Positions 2,013 to 37,026 of a stretch of DNA of 37,334 bases are shown here, piece after piece. Source of the DNA: Conidiobolus incongruus B7586 (lineage: Eukaryota); NCBI GenBank assembly GCA_000697335.1, contig JNEM01010363.1, positions 1 to 37,334 of the forward strand, read 5' to 3'. The position numbers were made by a program, and so were the translations under genes. The number at the start of each line of letters is the position of its first letter. Positions within the stretch are counted from its first letter, which is position 1. Under the pieces are notes generated by a model. That model was not told where the DNA came from and did no database searches. It was given only the letters and a program-made list of their open reading frames with translations.

Positions 2013-2399
2013 AATTTTTATTTAATCAAAAAATTTTTAAAATTATCTTGTATAATTAAACCCTATAATTTGACATTATTTGAATTTTAAATTATGAATC
2101 ATTCTTTCAATAATTTTGAATTTTTTTTCATGATTTATAACGAAGCTACACTTCATTTTGATTTTAGAAATATATTAGCAAATTGAACTAATTAGGGCTG
2201 CACCCATTTTCAAAAAAAATCCTAAATTTTTCATTATGTAAATTAACTATTGATCATAGTTAAAAATTCAAAAAAGATTTATTACAATTTAAAAATATCC
2301 AAAATATGTATATATGATATAAAATTAATAGCCACGATGATTGTCTATATATGTTTTTCAAACTTGAAACAAGTTTCTTATTCCAAAAAAATACATCTT

Positions 2400-3362
2400 C
2401 ATGATTTATAGTAGAATTTAACTTGAAAATTTCAACTTTGATAAATTTAGTAAATATAAACCTTCAAGCCTCTTCTTTTTAAGAGCCAAAGGTAATGTAA
2501 TTGTAAAGATTATAATGAAGGAAGTACGGCTATTGGAGTAAAGATGACCAATTCTTTTGATTGAACAAAGCGGTTATTAGCTTTGCCTTATAACTTCTGA
2601 CACTATTTTGTTAATGGTTGATTTGTTAATTTTTCCTAAGTTGCCCATTTGAAAATATTCCTAAATGAATTAGCATTATAGTGATATAAGCTCATGACTA
2701 CAATTTCAAGCAAAAGTTTATGAAACGCTATTCCATTATAATCCATTCCAATTATCCAAAGAATCTCATTTAAATATACTTGGATTTTGATAGCTTAAAT
2801 CTGGGTTTATTTGATCTTAATCAAAATCTGAATTTATTAAAAGGTTATCAACTGTCAATAACAATCGGTTAAAGAAATAGCAATAATTTGATCTAATAGA
2901 CTAGGATATTATTTATCATTCCTTAAGCTCTGCCTTGTAATAGAGACCCCTTTAGCATTTAGTTTATCAAGTAAAAGATGGTTATCAATTTCTTAACTTT
3001 TTTTGATAAAGCAAGATGAATTTTGAGTATGGTAAAAAAATTGATGAATAATTTAGAGTTTCATATCTAAAGCTCTAAGTGAAAAATTGGGAAACATTTC
3101 AATATATTTTTTGACAATTTTATTTTCCACCCAGGAATTGGTGGTAGTAATTAGAAAGATTAGGCCGAATTTCAACAGTCTATTGCTCTTAAACATACTA
3201 ATCTAGCATTTAACTCTACAATGTGACAGAACCTTATCACTTCAAGCAAATAACAAAGTTAGATGGATTTGATTCACTCAGTGTTTTGCAATAAATTAGA
3301 TTTTAATGAGGTATTTTTGAACTTAGATATCAAATTTTGAATTATTTTGATTTTGGTTCATG
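2400..3362 (-). pseudogene. Possible decayed F-box/LRR-like gene remnant
   Basis: The minus strand gives coding-like peptide fragments broken by many stops and frameshifts (MNQNQNNSKFDI*, LLEVIRFCHIVELNARLVCLR, EMFPNFSLRAL, IAISLTDCY). The family assignment is weak inference. Confidence 0.25.
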
Positions 3363-3722
3363 TTTTCAAAATATGATATTATTATTAAATAAAAGAAATA
3401 TTGATTATTTATACCAAATTAATTATTCGGAACTCAATATGAAGTTTTAGAAAAACTTGAAATTTAAAAAAAGATTTGATATTTAATTTTCACTTTAAAG
3501 AATAGAAAAATAAATAACTTTGATTAGATATAATTGACTTGTTATAAATTTAATAAACAAATCCATTATTTTATAGTTTTTATCATTTAATTCGATTATT
3601 TGAATGGATCTATTTTTATTTTAAAAATTTATAGGCTTAAATAATTAATCAATATGAATTATTAATAAAATAAGATAGTGCACAATTTTGATTCATATAT
3701 TATATTTTGTATGAGGATTTTC

Positions 3723-3747
3723 ATATATATATATATATATATATATA
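3723..3747. repeat. (AT)n microsatellite
   Basis: Uninterrupted AT dinucleotide run. Confidence 0.95.
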
Positions 3748-3964
3748 GCTCACTCAAACAAAATTAAATACTATTTAATTAAACATATTGATTTTATTGA
3801 AATTTTTTAATAACATGGTTAATTTTTCAAAGAAATTCAAAATATTATAAGTTTAAAATATTAAATTGTTTTATTAAACATATATTGATATTCAAAACTT
3901 ATATATAGTTGAAATTTAAAATATAAACATACTATTATAATTTGATATAATTGAACTGTGAAAT

Positions 3965-4745
3965 AAATGTATATAACTCGATTTTGTAAAATCAATTTAT
4001 TAGAAATATATCAAGCATTAATAAATTATTCAAGCTAAGTATGCTATCACCGTTCGTGGATATTAATAATAAAATCCTAAATAGAACAGAAAATGTGTTA
4101 ATAAATCGAATAAGAATTAATATAAAATTTTAAATAGAGAGATCATATAAAATGAGCAAATAGAGTATAGAATCCATAAAACACAAGAGCAAATCTTTAT
4201 AATTTGAGTTAACAAATTATTGTTAAAGGCTTCAATACAAAAAATGAACCAGTATTTCAAATCAAATCCATTGAACGCCAATATTTAGAAAAAGAAAAGT
4301 TCTATCAACTCCAAGAAAGAATTAATAGAACATAAATCTTGAAAAGATTCGAATAAAATAAGAAAAATTGTCAAATAAAAACTGAATCAATTTAAATTTG
4401 ACGGTAGTTAGATAATTAATTTTGCATTGGTAGAATTCAATTATCAAAATCATTTCAAATTCACCACGTGAAAATCAAGTATTATAGTTCAAGCTAACAC
4501 AAGAGCGAATCTTTATAAGAACATGAGTCCTTATTGTTGACTTGAAATACTCGATATCACTTATGCAAAACTAAATTCATCTAAAGTGACAAATATGGCA
4601 AAATGATTTTGAATCACTTTGATCATCAAAATGAGTCAAAGCAATAATGCGTAACAAGTATCACGCATGAACGGATTAGGGTTAGTAAATGGTATATAGT
4701 ATACCATCGAACAGGGATGTGATACATAGAAATACTGGCTCTGGT
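3965..4745 (-). ncRNA. Candidate telomerase RNA (TER/TR); 5' end not defined
   Basis: Minus strand: template CUAACCCUAA (4685-4676) lies 3 nt after an 8-bp hairpin (4707-4689). Two P5/P6/P6.1 three-way junctions (4538-4496 and 4224-4180) each contain A-AAGA-UUYGC-UCUU-G. Candidate H box AUAGCA (4047-4042), hairpin and ACA (3970-3968). Many helices pair through G-U only on this strand. No ORF. Confidence 0.8.
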
Positions 4746-5061
4746 AGCTCAGAGTTTAAATCATTTGGGTAAAATATTGATACGAATTCAAAAAATCAAT
4801 ACTTACATTAATGGAATCTATAGAATAAGCATTAAAATACAAAGTTCATATTAAGTGGATATAATATATATTGGTTACCATTAGATGTTTGTGCACCAAA
4901 GCCTAACCGAATCAAATAAAAATTAATCATAGAACAGTTGTTAGAAAATAGTATCTATGATTAAAATTTGAAAAACAAAATCAGGATCTGGTAATATTAT
5001 TGATTTTGAAAAGTTCATGTTGAATTCTATTAATATGTATTAGTGTATTTGTAGTGATTGA

Positions 5062-6325
5062 TCATTGTTCTTTTTCTTCAAGTTTTAGATCTTTCATTAA
5101 TTTGTTCAGAGATTCTGCTTTCAAAGCTTGCTCTGAAGCCTCCTAAGATAAAATTAGAATATTAATATTGGTATTAAAAATTTCAATACCTTTTGCTTGA
5201 TTCGTTCTAATAAATCTTGCTTATAATCACTAGATCAAACCAATTAGCAAGTTATATTATGGAAATAATATTTAAAAACCGTACGTTTCATATTCTTCAG
5301 CAGCTTCATTTACAGCTTTCATGAAATCATCCATTCCGCTTCCTGTAACAGATGAAACTCCAACAACCTAAAAAAGTTAAAGCATGTATATTGTCTTAAA
5401 TTGATATATGAATACCTTCAAATGTTGGTAAAATTCATCCAAAACTAATGACATCGAATACATAAATGTGGACATATAAGTTTGATCTTGTTCGATATCA
5501 GCTTGGAACTTTTGAAAATCTTGCATCCAATCAACAGCGAACTGATGGTCTTGTACGTCGGTTTTATTAAAAACAAGAATAAAAGGTAATCTTGTTTTAT
5601 AAAGAATACTATACAAAGAAATTAGGACCAATCATAGATATTTTAAGAATAATATTACCTGCAAGCGTAAAGCATATTGGACATAAAAGTAGCAGGACTA
5701 GTAGTTCTAGGGGTATCAATAATATAGGCAATAACAGTAGGATAGGAAAGCGCTAAGCTTTCAGTGATAATGGCACCAGAAGCAGACCATGTAAAAATTT
5801 CAATTTGACCAGGAGTATCAATCAAAATATGGCTAAGGGAAATAAATAAATAAATATATATATATATATATTGAGAGATATAGTTCTAACTTACTCAAGC
5901 TTATCTTCTTTCTTTTGAATAATGTCGAGAACTTGTTCGAATTTAGTAGTAAACAAGTTAAGACTGGTTAAGATGGCTCCATTAGGACCTAACCCATATC
6001 TGCAAAAGTGAGTAAATGAGCAAAATAAAAACATATATTATATTTACTCTTTCATAACGACTTTATAATTAACGGTATCTCTGATATCCAAGTTAGGTTT
6101 ATAAGGGACATTATAAACAGCAGGATCCAAGTTAATAATATAGGGATTTTTATTAGTTTTTTGTTTGAAATAAGAATTAATTCTCTAAAAAAATATTTAA
6201 TAAAAGTGTGATAATATTTTATATAGTAATAGTACTTGATTAAAGGTAGTTTTGCCTGACCCTGCCATACCAATAGAAATAATACAGACAGGTTTAGATG
6301 TTGCGTTGGAAGTAGATTCAGACAT
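5062..6325 (-). CDS. GPN1: GPN-loop GTPase 1 (Npa3/XAB1); multi-exon
   Basis: ATG at 6325. Spliced motifs [11 protein letters not shown] (P-loop), [32 protein letters not shown] (GPN loop), [47 protein letters not shown]. Ends [12 protein letters not shown], with TGA at 5064-5062. Confidence 0.95.
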
Positions 6326-6564: not shown

Positions 6565-7509
6565 CATATATTCACATAAATTAAATTAAAGTGGATAAAG
6601 GGAAGTAATGATAATAGTTTATGGAAATCTTCTCGCCATAATTGGCTTCACTCAAAGACCAGAGAGCCAGTCAAGTCATCAATCAAACGAATCTACCACA
6701 GTAATTTTATTTGTTCTTTGTTTAAATTAATCTGACTCTTAATTTATCATATAATTATTGAATAAATTTGACAAAGAATTTATTCTTACAAACTATAATA
6801 TTTTCGACTGGGTTCTTGATTGGATACAAGTGCTTCATCCAAAAAAATATAAAAATATTTTATAACATACAATGATTATAATGTTTTTCATTAACTTTAT
6901 AATCAATAGTATTCAAATCTGAATTAATCATAAAATAAAATTCTTTAGGTATAAATTACTTCATGGTTATTCTATTGTTATATTTTATTTTAGATATTAG
7001 AGTAATGCCTTCAACAAAATATCTGATTTATATACTTTGTCCTTTGTACTATATTTACATTTAATACCTGATTTTTCGTATCAAGTTCATTATTTATATT
7101 TCCAACATTTCAATTGATAAAAAAAATAATATTTTAAATTTTCATTACTATTTATACCAATCAAAGTGTGTTGTCATGATTATAATATATATTATTAGGA
7201 TAATTGAATAAAAATCAATAATTAAAATTGAATCATAAATTATAAACTAATATAATGCATTTGCGATATCAATTTGGTAGTATACGAATGTTAAAAATAT
7301 TTTAAAACATTATCAAATGTTACATTTCTTATGAATAATTAAATTTCAGTTACCTTTATTAATTATTGATATATAATCCCATATATTATTTAATTAAATT
7401 TAATTATTAATACCCTTTGATCATGGTTAGTCAAATATAAAAATCCTTTTCAAATTATATCCAATTATTCACATTCAAATAAATATTACTCAATTTAGCT
7501 CTATAAAAT

Positions 7510-10341
7510 ATGGGCAGAAAATATCCTCAAAGATTTAGCTACACTCCAGCCAATTCTGAATTAAAAGAAATTCCAGATAAGGTTAATTCGTCAACTGGAC
7601 TATTGAATGACGTAGAATCGGAGAACCCTGAAAATAAACTACGCTCACGTCCTATACAAAATTTAATTGGTATGAATAGCTCTAGACCGATGAGAAACTC
7701 CTATCCAGATGTTTATTCACGTGTCAATCCTCCAGCGACAGAAAATGACAAAATTTCCCCTCAGCAGCAGGTATATCATCAATTATGAAATATTAATACT
7801 GTATTCATATGTAACAATAGCTAAGAAGACTGTCATCAATATTACTAGATCAAAAATTATCCAGCAGTGATTTTACAAGTTACCAACTGGGAGTTTCCAA
7901 CAATTCGGATTTAGACAAATATGCAAATGGCATTCGCTCCCCTGAGTTGCTACAATCTATATCACTGATGGCCAGTATGAGGCTAAATCAATTGCAAAAA
8001 GGCGAGAGACCACCAACTCCCCAAGCGCTCCTTCGCCAATTAGTCAGAGCCATTAACTCTGAACGGTTAGCAGACAAAAATGAAATACAAGAAACTGTTC
8101 GAAATACATCACATACTGCTATTTCCCAGAAACTAACAATATCATCTAAAACGATTGATGTCAGCGATAGCAGTAGCGATAGTCCAATCGCCTTTAAGAT
8201 AGACGACTTTGATCCTTCAGCTTATAATCATCAAGTTGACAAGCTAATTGACGAGATCCCTAATATAAGCTTAATAGACCTTGAATCAATAGAAAATCTG
8301 GAAGCATACTCCAATATGAACATCAGTCACCGCTCCTTGAGAGATATCAATATTGAAGTTCCATCCTTACCCGACCACGATCTTAGTGAATCCAATAATA
8401 TTGATCAATATTTTAACAACTCTTTGAACACCGATCAAGATCTAGACAAGCTATTTCTCAAAGATGCGCTTCCCACCCCCGAGCGAAAATTTATTGACAT
8501 TTCCGACCAATTAACAGTCAATTCAAGTTTTGTCAACTCCAGTATTGCACAGGATCGAAGTTCAGTCGCAGAAAATTCCAGATTATCTATTAATGACTTT
8601 CCGGACCCTAATGTTGGCACATTCAGCCTATCTCTAACCGACCACGATGAGCAAATTGTGCAATATAATGATCTAACATCAGTTTCAGTGGGGCTTGATT
8701 TAAAGGAACCTGATGATACTTCCAATATGCCAGTCGTGGACTTGGAGGAAGATAAGAGCAAATCAGTGGATCTCTCGATGCTTGACAAGGCATTTATTCA
8801 GACCCCATTCAACAATCAATCTGGTTTGGACATATCACTTGACTTGAAAAATGAACTGGAGGGATTGCAGCACGAAATTGAATCAAACATTAATGATCTT
8901 GTAGTCCCTGAAGAATTAAGCCCTCCTCCTAACGTTGAAACTAGTCAAACAATCGACCAATTGATTCATACCAAGGAAGATGAAAAATCAGAATCAGCCT
9001 TCTCAGTAGATAATACTCATCAAGATGAAGCTAATCCACTTTTACCCGAATATGAGCCAGAATTGAAAAATCATATTCCCGATCAATCTCTTGATCTTTC
9101 TGAACCAATTGGAGACATCACTTCCGACTCTATTGATCAAAACATTAAATCCGACTTACAACCTCAGTCAGAGCAGGGTCAAGAAATTAAATCTGACGGC
9201 TCAACAGAGCCATCAATCGAACCAGAGCCTGAAATTGATGATGCTGTTCATAATGAGGAAAACGAAAAATCTCCAGTGTCAACAAAGTCAAGCCCCGCTT
9301 CTGAATCAAGTGAATCTTCCGATGAAGAATCTACTATCGATTTACCAGCCCAAAAAATTGATCAAGATCCAGATATTGATCTACCCAGTGTTTCTGAAAC
9401 TTCTGAGACAGCAGCTTTAATACATCCGCAAATTGAAATTGATGCAAGCTCAATAATTGAATCCAATGAACCAACAGACGCGATTGAGGAAACCCCCTTG
9501 ATAGATCAAACAAACAATACTGAAGTAGTCGCTGTATTGGAATCAGATAACCTAATTGAATCAAATAAACTAGATGCACTTTCCAATTCAACTCAAGATG
9601 CAACTTTATTAAGGTATATCTTTTTATCACATTTTCCATTTATTGCTTACATATTCTTAGTGTCAATCCCCCTGTTTCACCCAACGCTTCTTTTACCGAC
9701 AATTTGGGTGAAATACCCAATGAGAATATAGATGCTGTGAGCAAGGAGAGTGATATTTCTGATGGTTTTATTGACATAATCCGTGATAGTTCGACCAAGC
9801 CAATTTTATCTCCCGTTTCACCAGGCTCAGTTCCTACTCTTCCTACATTACACACCTTTAGGAAACAACGCAAGATTGATTTTAATCAAATTTCTAAAAG
9901 TTCTGCATCACTGTGAGTTAGATATTTTGAATTAATATTTACTGAAGCTAACTCAATTTTTAGAAATAACTTGCCTGCTTCGCAAGTAAAATCACTTGTA
10001 CAATCAATGGCAAATACCAGGATATCCCAGGCTACATTAAATAGTTTTTTATATGCTACAGATAAATATTTTGAACAAGTTTCTGGAGATTTGTTATCCT
10101 ATGCTAAACATGCTCAAAGAAAGACGGTCAACGAAGAGGATGTTTTATGTTTATTTAAAAGGTATATACATGTGTTACATGTGTTATAACATTGATAATA
10201 ACCTTGAAACTTAGACAAAATAGGATTAAAAACCCTGAGATGAGTGATTGGATTAGTTTAGCTCAAAAACAACTCCCAAGGGATTTATGGGAGCCTTTAG
10301 CTGAAGCAACTAATCCATCAAAGCGAAGAAAGAAGAACTAA
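7510..10341 (+). CDS. CENPT: CENP-T/Cnp20/Cnn1-like inner kinetochore protein: long acidic disordered region plus C-terminal histone fold
   Basis: Exons at about 7510-7770, 7821-9612, 9661-9912, 9964-10161 and 10215-10341 join in frame. C-terminus LPASQVKSLV...TDKYFEQVSGDLLSYAKHAQRKTVNEEDVLCLFKRQ...LAQKQLPRDLW is a CENP-T histone fold. N-terminal TPQALLRQLVR resembles the conserved CENP-T TP.xLLR helix. Confidence 0.8.
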
Positions 10342-21929: not shown

Positions 21930-24163
21930 ATGAATAAACTACATTTAATAGAAACTGAGTATTATAATTTATTACAATCTGATAACTCTGAAAATGATAC
22001 CAAGTTAGAAGAATTAAGGATAGAGTAATAATGCGATACTATTCTATGCTTTTATATTTTAATAATATTATATTAATTTAGATTGAGCGAGATTTACTTT
22101 GATCTTATAGTGGACAATGTAAATTCTAGTCAAATGTATAATTTTGAGGAAAGATGTTGGAAAATTGTGTTTTATTCACATTTAACCAAATTAAGGAGCT
22201 CATCACAAGTATATTATTTGAATTATTTTTTACATTCAATATTAATTGATCGCAATAGGATTCAAATGAGATATCAGAGCAGGACCTCTCGCTTCAATTA
22301 AAAGATTGGTTTTATTTCGGACTAGGCTATTTTAATTCTCTATTCTTATATATTGGTAAATCCAATAATGTGAATATTAATTCCTTTCCTTTTGAGCTAC
22401 TTAAATCCAAAGAATCAAAGCTAATTAACTTAGCTGAATCTTTGCAAAAATGCTTAATCAGTTTAGGGAACCTACATCGATACCAAATCCCTGCAGCAGA
22501 TCCTTCTTCAAATGGCTTCGAATCCGATCCTAATTTTAAACAGGCTGAGCAATGCTATTTAAGATCATCATTTATCAATCCTTTAAATGGGCGTGCGTAT
22601 AGTCAGCTCGGTATTCTAAATGCCAATACTCAATATCCTGTAAAATTTTTATTTTACTATTCTCTTGGACTGATTTGTGAGAATTCATGCATTATATCTG
22701 ACAAGAACCTTAAATTCATCCTCAACAAATATACTAATCATAGCCAACCACCTCAGGATGCGAAATCGAGTATATTGGTGCTTGAATATAAAATGATTGG
22801 GTTCTATGATCTAATAACCTGTCAAAATTCATGGGACCTTATTATTGATCGCGTCAAGAAATTTGGTCCGATATTTGTCGAGGATATGGAAAATCGTGCT
22901 TCTGATATTGATTCATTAATGGAAGAAACGTATTCAGATCCCCACTGGTCTGAAACCATATTCCACATCGTCATCATTCTTCTCTTCAATTGCTGGCGAC
23001 TAGCTCAATTTAAGAAAGATTTGCCCAACAACACACCATCATTTTGTATGGATATCCTATTCAAGATCCAGTATCACTGCTTCAAGCTCTCTATCAGAAC
23101 TATGAATTTGCTGATAGAAGATATTGGATCCAATTCCAGCTCCAAATTAGATTTGGTATCTATCTTTAGTGATTTTTGGATATCTAATAAGGAGCTGTGT
23201 TTCAGATTCTGTGAAGATAACACTGTTAAAGCAGAACTGCTCAACTTTATCATTAAAATTTCCAAGATATATAACTCGCTTTATCACATACATATGGGAA
23301 AATCTCAACTGAGTGTCGATGAACTTAAAGAGTTGCATCGAAGACCTTCTCGCCACGATTTCATTGTATGGGGAGTTCTCCCGTTAGCCAACTGCCACCG
23401 TCAGTTGGATGCCAACTATAGTACATTGACCAACAATGACTCTTTGGCCACAATGATTCTCATTGCCAGATGGTTTCAAATGGTCAATTCAGTGCATCAA
23501 TCGCCTGAATTCACTCTTTCATTTCCAGTTAATGCTCAGCTTCTTACCATAGGACACCAGAACCATGCAAAAGCACGTAATAAAGTGAATGATATGATGG
23601 TTAAGATGGCTGAATTAAGACTTCAGGACCAGGTAGAAAAACTTGAGAAAATGCTGTTGAAGAAGATTCCCATCCAAATCATACCCGATGCTCATGTATT
23701 ATTAACGCATTTCAATTGGGTAGAAGATTGGATTAAAAGGGCTAAAGTTCGAGTGATTATTACGAAATCAACTTTAGACGAGTTGGATGAGCTAAAAAAG
23801 GGGACAGACAATGTGAACTTTCAAGCTAGGAATATTGTTCGAAAATTCGATGCTTGGGGTACTAAGTACAATAAAGACAGAATATTTATTGATGCATCTG
23901 ACTACTCCAACCTCAATTTATTGGACTCTAAACACATTACCAAGGTTGAACAAAATGACCAATTGCTTGAAAGTTTTGAAAAATACCAATATTTATTGAA
24001 TGAACTGGCTAAAGTCACTCAGGATGTCAAGCTGAATGTCACGAGCAAATGGGAGACTTATCTGACTACCGACTCTCCTGCGCTCCTCGAATTAGTCGAC
24101 ATCTTTGGTCTTCAAGGTATTAAGGCAAATAAGGTGATATCAAAATTGAAGCAAAATCATTAA
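21930..24163 (+). CDS. EST1/SMG5-7 family protein with 14-3-3-like TPR domain and C-terminal PIN domain (SMG6-like)
   Basis: ATG at 21930; introns at about 22025-22081 and 22209-22258. Motifs FEERCWKIVFY, CLISLGNLHRY and AEQCYLRSSFINPLNGRAYSQLGIL (EST1/SMG TPR). PIN motifs IIPDAHVLL, TLDELDELKKG, QARNIVR, QNDQLL and LTTDS. Confidence 0.85.
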
Positions 24164-27558: not shown

Positions 27559-29760
27559 TTTAGAACCATAAATAATAATGAAAGTTGAGGTTGTAAGTGT
27601 GATATCTTGTTTACAGTAATTGGACTTTGACTATAAAAAATCTGATTAATGACTGTAAAAGGTTCTAATGTTTAAATATTGTTATTTTATTTTATTCATA
27701 TGTAATATTTAAATGATATATTAAAACTTCAAAAATAACTGTACCTAAATATAACATTGACTATATAATTTTATGTTTATAATTGAACAAAAATAGTGAA
27801 CTTTAATATAATATAATAATAGGCATGTTAACTAATCGATTTATCCAAATTTTATAGTTGTGTATTTTTGGAATATCTGAATCATTCATTGATTATCTGT
27901 AAAAACTTGGATTAATATTAAAATATTTTCGGAACATTATGAAAATATTACCATTTAAAACATTTTATTGTTTAATTATACTCCAATTGTTTTTGATTTT
28001 AGTTTGATTTTTTAAATTCTGTCATTCTCAAACGTAGAATTATTTCAGTATTATTCCTGGCTTGAAAATGAAAATACTTAGTTAAGTGAAGATCAATGAT
28101 GTTTAATTATTAAAATACTTATATAAATATCTTTGCATTTCAACTGTATAATTACATTTGTATAGAGTGTTTAATAGAACTAATAATAAAACACCAATAA
28201 TATTTAACATAGTATTCAAATGATTACATTTGCGCCCAGAAAATATTACATACTATTCATATGTGTTTTTTTTCACAACATTTTGAAATGCTAAATTGAT
28301 ATAACCTCATATTTGATTTTATTAAGCTAAAATGCTTAAAAAACATTATATAGAATATAAATTATAACCTGTTATACATTAAAATCAATGAATTTTTCTA
28401 TAATCTTTTGAAATCATTCTACTAATTAAAAATATGAATTATTTTTTTAATTGATGAATCTAAAATTATAGTTTTAAAAATTGCAAATTTCTAACTTACA
28501 TATCAAAGATTTTAACTTTTACCTAATTCCACTGTATTAAATAAAAAAATGATCAGTCAGCACATCCCTATGTCAATATTTTTAATTTGTAATAAATGAT
28601 TAAATATATACGTGATAAACGTTTTATATTCCTCAATCTTCTAGAAGCTAAGATCCTCTGAATAACTCGTTAATTAGTTGGCAGCAATACGATTTCCCTA
28701 ATACAAAAAATATAATAAAATCTAGAATGCTTGGCTTTGTAAAATATAAGGTATTACCATTTTTAGAGATCTGAAATATAAGTTTTATTATTCCGAAATC
28801 ATCTAAATTTAGATATATAGCGAAAATCGATCAATGATTTTTTTCTAATGTATAAATTCAATATTATCAAAAATTTAAACTTATAATTAATATAATTAAA
28901 ATTTGTACAGTAAGCGATATGACGAGTGGTATTTCAAGGCAATGTTCTCCAATTCTAGTTTCCTATATTGTTTTCTAGACTTATAAAATATGGATAAAAA
29001 TAAGAAATAATTGGGACATAATTAAAAAAATTAGAAATTAGTATAAAAAGTTTAAATGATTTTAGTTGTTTTATATTACTATTCCTCTAGATTATTCTAG
29101 TCAAGAGGTTCACCTGAATACATGTCTATAGTTTTTTGAAATGTTCAACCTTATTCTAATAATTTAATCATCTGGCTAACATAATTCATCCATTATCTTT
29201 ACCAATCTGAAAAATTAATTTTAGATTGCCAATCAGATAAAACAAATTACGGACCAAAAAATAATCTCAATATTTAGTATTTTAATAATTCAGAGTTACG
29301 GACAAAGTTAACCAAAATAAATTTGTAATAATGGATAATAACAGTAGATTCTTGAAATAATTGCACCCATCAGTTTAAAATTGATTAGTGTTTGATATTA
29401 ATTTTCTTTGATTTATGGCTTATTCTTTAATATACACGTTATTTATTAAAACTTTTCTGTCGATTTTGTTTAATTTCAAATATATATGATTTATTTCAAT
29501 TGGATAACTAATCTGTTTCTATTGTTTTTTTTATATATATTAAAATACGGGTATTTAAAAATCTAACTAATAAGGATATTAGGATTTGGATTCCCATTAT
29601 TAGTTAATTATCCATAACAATTGCATAAAAAAGAAACCAGTTTTTCAAAAATTATATAAAAAGGTCATCAATCATCATTGTTAACCAAGAAACCGGCAAA
29701 TAAATTTTTTATTCACCTTATTTCTAACAAAGTATATATTCCAATACATCATCAATTTCA

Positions 29761-30942
29761 ATGACCAATTTAACTCCGTTCAGACTTGAAAGATTCTTTG
29801 CCAAATATGAATTCAAGACAAAGTATCTTATGTGTACCTCTGATCCCGAATCAATGACTATCAAAGAGCTCTTTGATTTGACTGGCAATAGCGAAGCTCT
29901 TTGGGAGGAGTTTAGCAACCTTCCACTTTGTTACACTGAATCGAGTGGCCATCCCGAGCTGAAACAACTCATTGCTAAGCTTTATCATCCTGGCAAAATC
30001 TCTGATCAAAATGTTTTGGTCCATACTGGTGCAGAAGAGGTGATCCTCACCGCATTTACAGCTCTTGTGAATCCACAAGATCACATCATTTGTGTCACTC
30101 CCTGCTATCAATCCTCGGTAGAAGTTCCCAAGACTCGCGGTTGTGAGATTGACGAATGGTCCGTAGAACTTAAAGATGGTAAATATATTCTGGATTTCCA
30201 CAAGTTAGAGGCCTTGATCCGTCCCAATACAAAATTAGTCGCTATCAACACACCTCACAATCCTACTGGCCTTCACTTCACTAAGGAGGATCAAGATCGC
30301 TTGGTTAAGATTTTGGAGCCCAAAGGAATAATATTAATAGCTGATGAGGTGAATCGACTTTCCGAACATGATCTAAGTTATAGAATTCCCAGTTTTGCAG
30401 ATGTATATTCTAATACTGTCTCAATCGGTGTTATGTCTAAATCATTGGCATTGCCAGGTATTCGTATTGGCTGGGCTGCTTCTCAAAGAACTGATATCCT
30501 TGATCAAATGGCTACCATTAAGGACTATACCACTATCTGTAATCCTGCACCCTCTGAATTCCTTGCTATTGTAGGTTTACGCTATGTTGATAAATTACTA
30601 AACAGGTTATTACCCATCTACCATCACAATCTTGGTCTCTTGGATGAATTTTTTGCTCAACATCAAGATAAATTCGAATGGATTAGACCTAATGCAGGAA
30701 TTGTGGCCTTTGTTAGGCTCAAGCCCGAATTTTGGAATAGCTTACTTCCTGGAGATGGTCCATTGGCTGAACGATTCTCAAAGGATGTGTTAGATAAAGT
30801 TCAAGTCCTTGTTGCTCCTGGATCACAATTTGATGCTTTGGATAATGGTGAATGGAGCGATTATTTCAGATTGGGCTATGGCCGTAAGAATTTACCTGAG
30901 GTGCTGAATGAATTTAAACGCTATATATCTTTGATTCAATAA
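29761..30942 (+). CDS. PLP-dependent aminotransferase class I/II (capreomycidine-synthase/aspartate aminotransferase-like subgroup), intronless
   Basis: 393-aa single ORF. Motifs PFRLERFFAKYEF, YTESSGHPEL, TGAEE, INTPHNPTG, ADEV, GVMSKSLALPGIRIGW (PLP lysine) and FRLGYGR. Confidence 0.9.
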   Translation: MTNLTPFRLERFFAKYEFKTKYLMCTSDPESMTIKELFDLTGNSEALWEEFSNLPLCYTESSGHPELKQLIAKLYHPGKISDQNVLVHTGAEEVILTAFTALVNPQDHIICVTPCYQSSVEVPKTRGCEIDEWSVELKDGKYILDFHKLEALIRPNTKLVAINTPHNPTGLHFTKEDQDRLVKILEPKGIILIADEVNRLSEHDLSYRIPSFADVYSNTVSIGVMSKSLALPGIRIGWAASQRTDILDQMATIKDYTTICNPAPSEFLAIVGLRYVDKLLNRLLPIYHHNLGLLDEFFAQHQDKFEWIRPNAGIVAFVRLKPEFWNSLLPGDGPLAERFSKDVLDKVQVLVAPGSQFDALDNGEWSDYFRLGYGRKNLPEVLNEFKRYISLIQ

Positions 30943-34493: not shown

Positions 34494-35321
34494 ATCGGAA
34501 TTATTGATTTATTTAATGATTTATATATATTTAAATCAATATTATTTTTAATAAAAATAGTTTCATTTTATTTCTTGTTTTATTGAATTATTTAATTAAT
34601 TTAATTTTATAATAGAATATCCTATTAATATATTAACTAATGATTTTTAATTTTTTATTTAATTTTACCTTATATTCTTATTTATTTTAAGACACAATTA
34701 AGCATTATATTTAATCTCTTGATTGAAATATCATATATCATATATTTTAAATTTATTGTGTTAAATACTCTGAAAAAATTTGTGAATTGCTGAAGTGTAT
34801 ATATTATTAATCAACCTAGAATCAAAATGTATATTTATCTGTAATACACACATTTATATTATTTTATATATTTTTACATCAACTTCAAACTAGATTTTAT
34901 TGTATTGTAAAAATATTGTAAAGGCTAAAATATAAGTAATAATAAGGTTAATTCTTTATTAAAAAGTAATTATAGGGAATAAATAGCAAATTTCAAAGAA
35001 TAAATAAGATTATATATCAGAGCTCTTTAGACAGTTTAGGTACAATGGATAATTAAATAATTGAGATTAATGAAAAAGAAAATATTTCAATTCATATTAT
35101 TTTAGTATATTAAATTTTAGAATATATATATATATATATATATACCAAAAATACAACTTTAAATCTAGATAAAGCAAAAATGCAATGTAAAAGAGAATGA
35201 AATAATAAAATAAATAATTGTGGAATAGAAGCTGATTTGCAAATGAATTTAACTAGAAAAGTTAAAATAAATATGTAAATATATCAACTTATATTTTGGT
35301 ATCAAAATGTGGATATATAAT

Positions 35322-35395
35322 GCTCCCATACCTCAGCTGGTTAGAGGCTGGTGCTAATAACACCAGGGACGCAGCTTCGATCTTTGTTGAGAGCA
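35322..35395 (+). tRNA. tRNA-Ile(AAT), probably degenerate or a pseudogene
   Basis: GCTCCCA-TA-CCTC-AGCTGGTTA-GAGG-C-TGGTG-CT-AAT-AA-CACCA-GGGAC-GCAGC-TTCGATC-TTTGT-TGAGAGC-A. D and anticodon stems are intact; there is one C-A mismatch in the acceptor stem and the T stem lacks the G53-C61 pair. Confidence 0.85.
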
Positions 35396-37026
35396 TTTCT
35401 TGAATATACCATTTATATATTATTTTCATTATTCATTTTAATATTATTTGTAATGTTTTTGAGTAGTAATGGGTATAAGTGTTTTAATATTGGTTTGTAT
35501 TTTTGATACAGTTTATAACCAAACAAAATATATATTAACTACATGTTATAAACATAAGTCGTAATTTTATAAAATTTCTTCAATTAGCCTCACTTTAAAA
35601 ATACATATTTGTAGTTTATATTAATAATATAATGCTGACTATAAAATGAAAATTATTGTTTGTTTTTATATAATCTTTTTGCGATTATTCAAATCTCTAA
35701 AGCAAACTCTAATACAATATTAAAATAAATATAATTATCTAGTATTAATATCCTTAAAAGTTTGAAATAATTATGTGGTGAATATGTAATACCTAATTAA
35801 AAGTAGCAACAGAAATTATAATCAAACGTGATTCATTTATATAATTTAGTCAATTATCAAATGAAAAAATTCGATTCAAACTAAATTCAGAAAATATTAA
35901 ATTTATTTTAAAGTCACACATATTTACATAAATACTAATGAACCATACTAACTCAAAATTACTTAAATCAATTGCATCAATCAAGATAAATATTATATAT
36001 TAAAACTATGTTACTAGTGTTTAGCTTTAATCATGTATTAATTAATTAGATAGAATATATGAATTTTTACTTAGCACTAATGTCTACATTAAAGCAGTGC
36101 AAAATAAATAGATTGTTGTTTACATATTTAAGTTAGTAACACTCATCTCTATAGTCACTTCATTTTAACAGAGCTATCATTAACTTGATGGATTGATAAT
36201 ATGTTTAATGAAAATTTAAAATATTGTTGATATCATATTCAAAACAATACATTAACTACATGGTATATTTGGAAATTGATAGATGAATTCCTATAGCCTA
36301 ACTTGTATTGTGCCATAGTTCTTAAAATAAATTTATAGTAAAGATCCTCCTATTTACTAGCTCCGATTGATGATTTAGACACTTACATTGATAACAAAAT
36401 CAAATAAAAGATTTGTTTAATTTTATATGTATAATAGCCAAATTTGAAATATTGTTTATATCAATCTCTTATACTTTGATATACAAAAATATATTAGCTT
36501 TTTATTAAATATCTTTAAAAAAATACGAATTGACAAATTATAATATCATTCCACAATATAATTTTGTAAATATTCAGTTTTTCAATAAGATAAATATTAT
36601 TACCATTTTTATAAGAAAATTTTGCCAAATGACATAACTAGAAAATATGAGACTTTCTAATGATTAGCAATATGGTTGATTATATTGTTATAATGATAGT
36701 TGATTAGTTTTTCAAAATTGAATCCTAAAGTATTTCAAACTGTTGTCGCGTGATTTGATGGAAAAACGAAAAGGGAATTATTTGGAATTTTGGATTTTCA
36801 TTAGTATATTGAAAGGCAAAATTATGAAATTCAGTAAATTGACGTAATTTTCAAAATAAAAGAACTTGATTGGAAAGAAATCAGGAATAATTTTCCCATA
36901 GTAACTAGATTTTCAAAATTAATAAGTGAATAAAATCTGAATAATATATTGATTTCAATATATAAAAGGAACTCAAGACAAATCTGATTTTTTATTAAAT
37001 TTAATTAAATTACTATTAATATCAAA

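Follow-up and report, generated by a model that had tools for sequence, protein, structure and literature searches.

A candidate telomerase RNA gene with two CR4/5-like junctions downstream of GPN1 in Conidiobolus incongruus

Does the spacer downstream of GPN1 in Conidiobolus incongruus B7586 hold the telomerase RNA (TER) gene of this fungus? The published fungal TERs that we found belong to Ascomycota and Basidiomycota, plus one uncorroborated proposal from Lichtheimia, and a literature search returned no telomerase RNA described for Conidiobolus or Zoopagomycota. A first-pass annotation of the stretch of DNA analyzed here, which we call the window (the full 37,334 nucleotides of contig JNEM01010363.1), had proposed a minus-strand telomerase RNA of an early-diverging fungus with an H/ACA domain at its 3′ end. 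Anatomy and chance controls lend good support to the identity, and support for the H/ACA 3′ domain stays at chance level. We assign a probability of roughly 0.88 to the reading that minus 4741-4166 encodes the telomerase RNA of this fungus. The locus likely holds a compact telomerase RNA with a boundary of fungal type and, unusually, a duplicated CR4/5. The letters themselves show the template, the complementary strands, a junction in two copies, and no reading frame. RNA features described below lie on the minus strand, and their coordinates run from high to low in the 5′-to-3′ direction.

The GPN1 spacer and its strand

GPN1, a multi-exon gene for a GPN-loop GTPase, occupies 6325-5062 on the minus strand with its stop codon at 5064-5062. 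The RNA core starts 320 nt past this stop on the same strand, and the GPN1 transcript is a possible host transcript of the RNA. One GPN1 exon encodes 64 amino acids with 100% identity to Conidiobolus coronatus NRRL 28638 CONCODRAFT_50801, the remaining full-coverage matches listed reach at most 77% identity, and the ends of the GPN1 protein differ from those of CONCODRAFT_50801, which makes the host a close relative of C. coronatus, within Entomophthoromycotina. Across the 3′ end of the gene (5120-5319, minus), where two short introns lie, one 200-nt segment reaches z = -4.8 on the minus strand, and the adjoining segments lack such strong folding. Head to head with GPN1 lies a long acidic gene (7507-10189, plus) with a CENP-T histone fold at its end. 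From the opposite side of the spacer, a mitochondrial carrier gene is convergent and ends at 2012. The intergenic stretch 2400-3400 has 25 to 32% GC against about 15 to 20% nearby, contains no long frame, and gave no match in a Pfam scan with stops read as X; it is possibly a decayed element.

Other genes in the window include an Est1/SMG5-7-like gene at 22259-24163 (plus), some 17.5 kb away from the RNA locus, in which EST1_DNA_bind and PIN_4 exceed their cutoffs and EST1 falls slightly under. In yeast, Est1 is one of the telomerase subunits; the gene here is probably a nonsense-decay factor that lies close to the RNA by chance. One tRNA-Ile(AAT) gene is found at 35321-35396 (plus), and a class I/II aminotransferase of 404 amino acids occupies a single frame at 29728-30942 (plus), without an apparent intron in an intron-rich genome.

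A protein-coding reading of the spacer was rejected: the longest stop-free frames reach at most 67 codons in 2100-5050 and at most 55 codons over the RNA core, and Pfam scans of all six frames of 4100-5061 returned no match. Folding bears out the minus strand, as first claimed: 4160-4745 scored z = -9.1 on the minus strand versus -3.9 on the plus strand (40 shuffles each). Segments of 200 nt within 4220-4719 ranged from z = -2.8 to -5.0 on the minus strand, none of those starting at 2020-4020 fell below z = -1.6, and those starting at 3920 and 4020 scored -0.1 and -0.4. Of the extent originally given to the RNA, 4745-3965, structure is supported over about 4741-4166. The four helices drawn in the first-pass annotation were all recovered in place, with 1 to 3 G-U pairs each.

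A predicted closed template domain with two CR4/5-like junctions

The strongest helix in 4770-4120 had been overlooked. Strands 4741-4729 and 4258-4246 pair over 13 bp (-21.8 kcal/mol; pair probability, 0.97 to 1.0), with a strength equaled by 1 of 300 shuffles and by none of 46 control stretches, and the pair probability stayed at 0.95 to 1.0 across all seven choices of ends tried. We read this as P1, the predicted core-enclosing helix, which would close about 495 nt of RNA into one domain. Both the minimum free energy and centroid folds also contain a second, weaker enclosing helix, as two 4-bp stems between 4723-4714 and about 4269-4260. Within P1, the order is boundary hairpin, template, a 9-bp hairpin 3′ of the template (4668-4647), pseudoknot region, long arm, further hairpins (including one of 14 bp with three G-U pairs at 4331-4299), and the 3′ strand of PK2. 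Three 5′ helix strands, 4741-4729, 4600-4591, and 4555-4544, share a similar motif (CCAGUAUUU / CCAUAUUU / CGAGUAUUU) and are able to cross-pair with one another's partners, which suggests an older internal duplication or alternative folds.

The template CUAACCCUAA at 4685-4676 is 10 nt long (1.67 repeats), specifies TTAGGG, and is predicted to be single-stranded with a probability of 0.85. [quoted passage not shown] As previously asserted, CTAACCCTAA is present at minus 4685-4676; it is the sole copy in the window and the only permutation of the repeat of at least 9 nt on either strand. Because CTAACCCTAA was found in 7 of 100 shuffles (0.07 copies expected in the window), the template is weak evidence by itself. 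The Mucor telomere repeat is TTAGGG, and a literature search for a Conidiobolus telomere sequence found none. Directly 5′ of the template, across a 2-nt spacer, stands the boundary hairpin that had been proposed (4708-4688), with 9 bp and a pair probability of 0.95; a hairpin as long arose in 32 of 2,000 shuffles. Boundary helices in Aspergillus have about 8 bp and mostly lie 2 nt off the template (PMC3603654, available text), and the hairpin here is a boundary element of the fungal type.

With P1 predicted to close the template domain, one CR4/5-like junction (junction 2, 4238-4166) falls at the usual position, directly 3′ of P1, and the other (junction 1, 4545-4489) sits on an arm inside the core. 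Both had been proposed, and both are there; a junction of this kind is predicted to bind TERT. In each, a P5 of AACA/UGUU is followed by a P6 of 8 bp, an A left unpaired, a P6.1 of 4 bp, and an unpaired G. Junction 1 comprises P5 at 4538-4535/4499-4496, P6 at 4534-4515, A4514, P6.1 at 4513-4501 with the loop UUCGC, and G4500; junction 2 comprises P5 at 4224-4221/4183-4180, P6 at 4220-4199, A4198, P6.1 at 4197-4185 with the loop UUUGC, and G4184. The P6.1 consensus is a 4-bp stem with an NUNGN loop in the available text of PMC3592445, and the two copies agree with it. In the motif AAGAGTTGGGCTCTG (PMC10035886, available text), P6.1 is flanked by A and G, as in both junctions here. Since hairpins resembling P6.1 occur often on their own (40 on the two strands of the window), the evidential weight rests on context. 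The pattern AAGANTNGNTCTTG, which was derived from the candidate itself, has 2 matches versus 0.04 expected, and none of 100 shuffles contained two. Junction 1 folds in every context (P6, 0.97; P6.1, 0.81). Junction 2 folds in some contexts only: it forms alone at -12.3, its 53-nt core misfolds alone, and its P6.1 reaches 0.56 to 0.75 when the RNA starts at 4745 and 0.01 to 0.27 when it starts further upstream.

The two junctions are identical at 22 of 23 nt, with the one difference at an N position of the loop, and, simple repeats aside, the window has no other same-strand repeat of this kind. A tandem duplication of the whole gene was rejected, as the 5′ parts score 29 against 28.0 ± 4.0 for shuffles and the 3′ parts score 54 against 53.4. 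Because the flanks align at shuffle level, we see a local duplication and not a second gene, and junction 1 likely arose in this way. Flanks that have diverged around nearly identical cores indicate that both junctions are probably under selective maintenance, judging from sequence comparison. The distal P6 sequence differs between the copies yet pairs in each, with uncertain homology of the columns; a claim of four compensatory changes there lost force, since the MAFFT alignment of this section contains indels. We know of no duplicated CR4/5 domain elsewhere.

A candidate pseudoknot has its 5′ part at 4640-4583, with PK1 at 4620-4613/4590-4583 (8 bp), a loop ending in UUUU, and the 5′ strand of PK2 at 4600-4591. 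The 3′ strand of this long-range helix, 4286-4276, begins with AAA and carries one bulged U (G-C end pair probability, 0.99). PK1 and the 10-bp PK2 (one bulge) abut without a gap, and their 18 bp were reached by 13 of 200 shuffles. PK1 competes for the same strand with a local hairpin at 4640-4608 (probability, 0.83); releasing the strands of PK1 takes 12.0 kcal/mol versus about 11 gained, and the two states are nearly equal in energy. Whereas the human pseudoknot loop is described as having 4 to 5 invariant uridines, the UUUU of the candidate is displaced 9 nt from PK1 and is not adjacent to it. The large second loop would contain the long arm (4584-4408), whose tip bears junction 1 and which has a side hairpin at about 4467-4430 (4400-4760, z = -5.8), and insertions in such a loop are common according to the available text of PMC3592445. 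An alternative candidate, in which the pseudoknot loop is a canonical CUUU (4648-4642/4628-4622 with 4637-4629/from 4455), crosses the long arm. A perfect 12-bp complement between 4612-4601 and 4455-4444 (minus) also crosses it, linking the pseudoknot loop region to the unpaired 14-nt loop of the arm hairpin; it may represent a tertiary contact or a coincidence.

The joint occurrence of these elements was assessed with a relaxed descriptor of template, boundary helix (at least 7 bp), junction (within 1,500 nt), and enclosing helix (-18 kcal/mol or better), run on both strands of 3,000 block shuffles amounting to 224 Mb. The C. coronatus genome measures about 40 Mb. Among 2,085 templates in the shuffles, 329 had a boundary helix, 22 had a junction, 2 had both, and none had boundary, junction, and P1 together or two junctions, counts that serve as a guide and not as a p-value because the thresholds were set post hoc and shuffles lack real repeats.

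Homology searches added no relative. No telomerase family in Rfam matched up to an E value of 10 and none reached its gathering threshold; other Rfam families matched at 0.26 or worse, none at threshold. Viral, metagenome, and prokaryote collections, which contain little fungal DNA, yielded no homologue among the matches listed and therefore no covariation, and no relative turned up when the GPN1 locus was sought in the viral and prokaryote collections. Pattern scans of viral contigs gave 19 matches to the P6.1 18-mer, 14 to a loose pattern, and 0 in two other scans; metagenome contigs gave at least 117 matches and prokaryote genomes 0. When at least 135 loose-pattern matches in at least 131 loci were scored for stems, 9 were taken on to folding, and 5 of the 9 lie in a stop-free frame. 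BLAST against at least 150 loci gave, among the best 25 rows, seed-sized matches of 19 to 30 nt only.

The 3′ end, biogenesis, and competing readings

Within the telomerase RNA reading, about a third falls to a sub-case in which a single junction works: either the RNA stops near an AU6G motif and relies on junction 1, or junction 2 is the working copy, with junction 1 a mere passenger. We regard this as somewhat unlikely. The AU6G at 4245-4238 comes directly after P1, an Sm site marks the end of fungal TERs (PMC3603654, available text), and junction 2, unlike junction 1, depends on a 5′ end near 4745. However, the motif reads AU6GU and not AU5-6GR, and ATTTTTTG occurs at chance frequency (14 seen versus 12 expected). 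Furthermore, the two copies resemble each other only within the junction, and an 8-bp P6 persists in each despite different distal sequence, a pattern that neutral decay would disfavor. An ascomycete-type end, with an Sm site and spliceosomal cleavage, was not found either, since a GTATGT at 3932 has no branch point matching RCTRAY in 4170-3400. An AATAAA lies at 4001, and none of the 3′-end signals sought rises above chance.

An animal-like H/ACA telomerase RNA, extending to 3965 and matured by dyskerin, is another sub-case of the telomerase RNA reading and a very unlikely one. The H-box/hairpin/ACA tail claimed by the first-pass annotation (4165-3965) can be drawn, with an ANANNA box at 4047, a two-stem hairpin, and an ACA at 3970, but this best candidate folds at -7.7 kcal/mol (z = -0.6), and an H...ACA candidate can be found in 70 of 72 AT-rich controls and is at least as stable in 38 of 72. 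The surrounding 3940-4180 folds at z = +0.2. The animal-type succession of hairpin, H box, hairpin, and an ACA 3 nt from the end, directly after the CR4/5 stem, is not supported: the box at 4047 stands about 120 nt from junction 2, and a nearer box at 4148 is served by a hairpin of only -0.9 kcal/mol. The segment has no support above chance and may fall outside the mature RNA, and the H/ACA end should be dropped.

Could the locus instead produce some other structured RNA, such as an element of the GPN1 3′ untranslated region (UTR) or an unknown noncoding RNA, with coincidental telomerase-like motifs? GPN1 does lie on the same strand with its stop 320 nt away, the template alone turns up in 7 of 100 shuffles, and the locus has no Rfam support. 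A template predicted to be unpaired, a helix at the place of the boundary, an enclosing P1, and P6/P6.1 after it are, in contrast, a combination seen 0 times in 224 Mb, and no non-telomerase Rfam family came up at threshold, so that we consider this explanation highly improbable. A silent or secondary gene copy, with the working gene elsewhere in the genome, would fit a locus rearranged by internal duplication and a canonical pseudoknot that is not clean, but it is very unlikely given that nothing in the template, the boundary, P1, or either P6.1 loop is broken and that the long-range helices are near perfect.

Under the favored reading of 4741-4166 as telomerase RNA, TERT would bind the closed template domain and copy the 10-nt template onto chromosome ends. 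The telomere end would align on 3′-AAUC, CCAAUC would be copied to add GGTTAG, and synthesis would stop at the boundary hairpin. The bands expected on (TTAGGG)3 would be +4, +10, and +16, in a register of the human type, as judged from templates given in the available text of PMC3592445. Runs of five to six U stop polymerase III, and because the RNA has four such runs internally, transcription would be by polymerase II. The RNA may have a promoter of its own within the 320-nt spacer, which a TATATA at 4870 permits, or be released from the GPN1 3′ UTR. Position and strand would permit the latter, by an mRNA-derived route of the Ustilago type; in Ustilago maydis, processing of TER from the 3′ UTR of emi1 mRNA has been shown (PMC9564094, available text). 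TERs of this type derive from an mRNA that is capped and spliced, and they carry a 5′ monophosphate.

Comparison with known telomerase RNAs

In its fullest form, the candidate would be the first well-formed TER outside Dikarya, with two working CR4/5 domains, one of them inside the pseudoknot loop, and cut from the 3′ UTR of GPN1 mRNA; we find this version doubtful. If it were true, one RNA could use either junction to engage TERT or could carry two molecules of TERT, and mRNA-derived biogenesis would extend to a lineage older than the split of Ascomycota and Basidiomycota. As Zoopagomycota stand on an earlier branch, the candidate bears on the ancestral fungal telomerase RNA, which would have had a hairpin boundary and P6.1 and apparently no H/ACA. 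It could serve as a seed for covariance-model searches in zygomycetes and chytrids and as a first handle on the TERs of early-branching fungi, and a natural CR4/5 duplication would provide a test case for the position of the domain and for one RNA serving two TERTs.

Vertebrate TER places the junction directly after P1, as with junction 2 here. The candidate also has the same 5′ boundary register of the template, which ends at C, and the same P6.1 layout of A, stem, NUNGN, stem, and G. In contrast to vertebrate TER, its boundary is a local hairpin, it has no supported H/ACA domain, and its template is 10 nt rather than 11.

The putative TER of Lichtheimia corymbifera (PMC4133162) is the sole proposal from outside Dikarya that our literature search found. 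In the available text, that RNA is near short ciliate RNAs and has no homologue in another basal fungus, whereas the candidate carries the fungal/animal core.

Pezizomycotina TERs, as represented by Neurospora crassa and Aspergillus in the available texts of PMC3592445 and PMC3603654, differ from the candidate in size (2,049 nt in N. crassa versus about 580 nt of supported structure here). [quoted passage not shown] Common to both are a TTAGGG template, a hairpin boundary about 2 nt 5′ of it, core-enclosing helices, and a P5/P6/P6.1 junction with a 4-bp stem and an NUNGN loop.

Compared with the TERs of U. maydis and Malassezia (PMC9564094, PMC10035886, and PMC12506658, available texts), the candidate differs in its neighbor gene, in having two junctions, and in lacking a convincing terminal Sm site. 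These TERs share with it a location 3′ of a same-strand protein gene (emi1 there, GPN1 here), the boundary element, and P6.1. The Malassezia TER, estimated at 483 nt in the available text, is near the candidate in size and likewise has two stems between template and pseudoknot.
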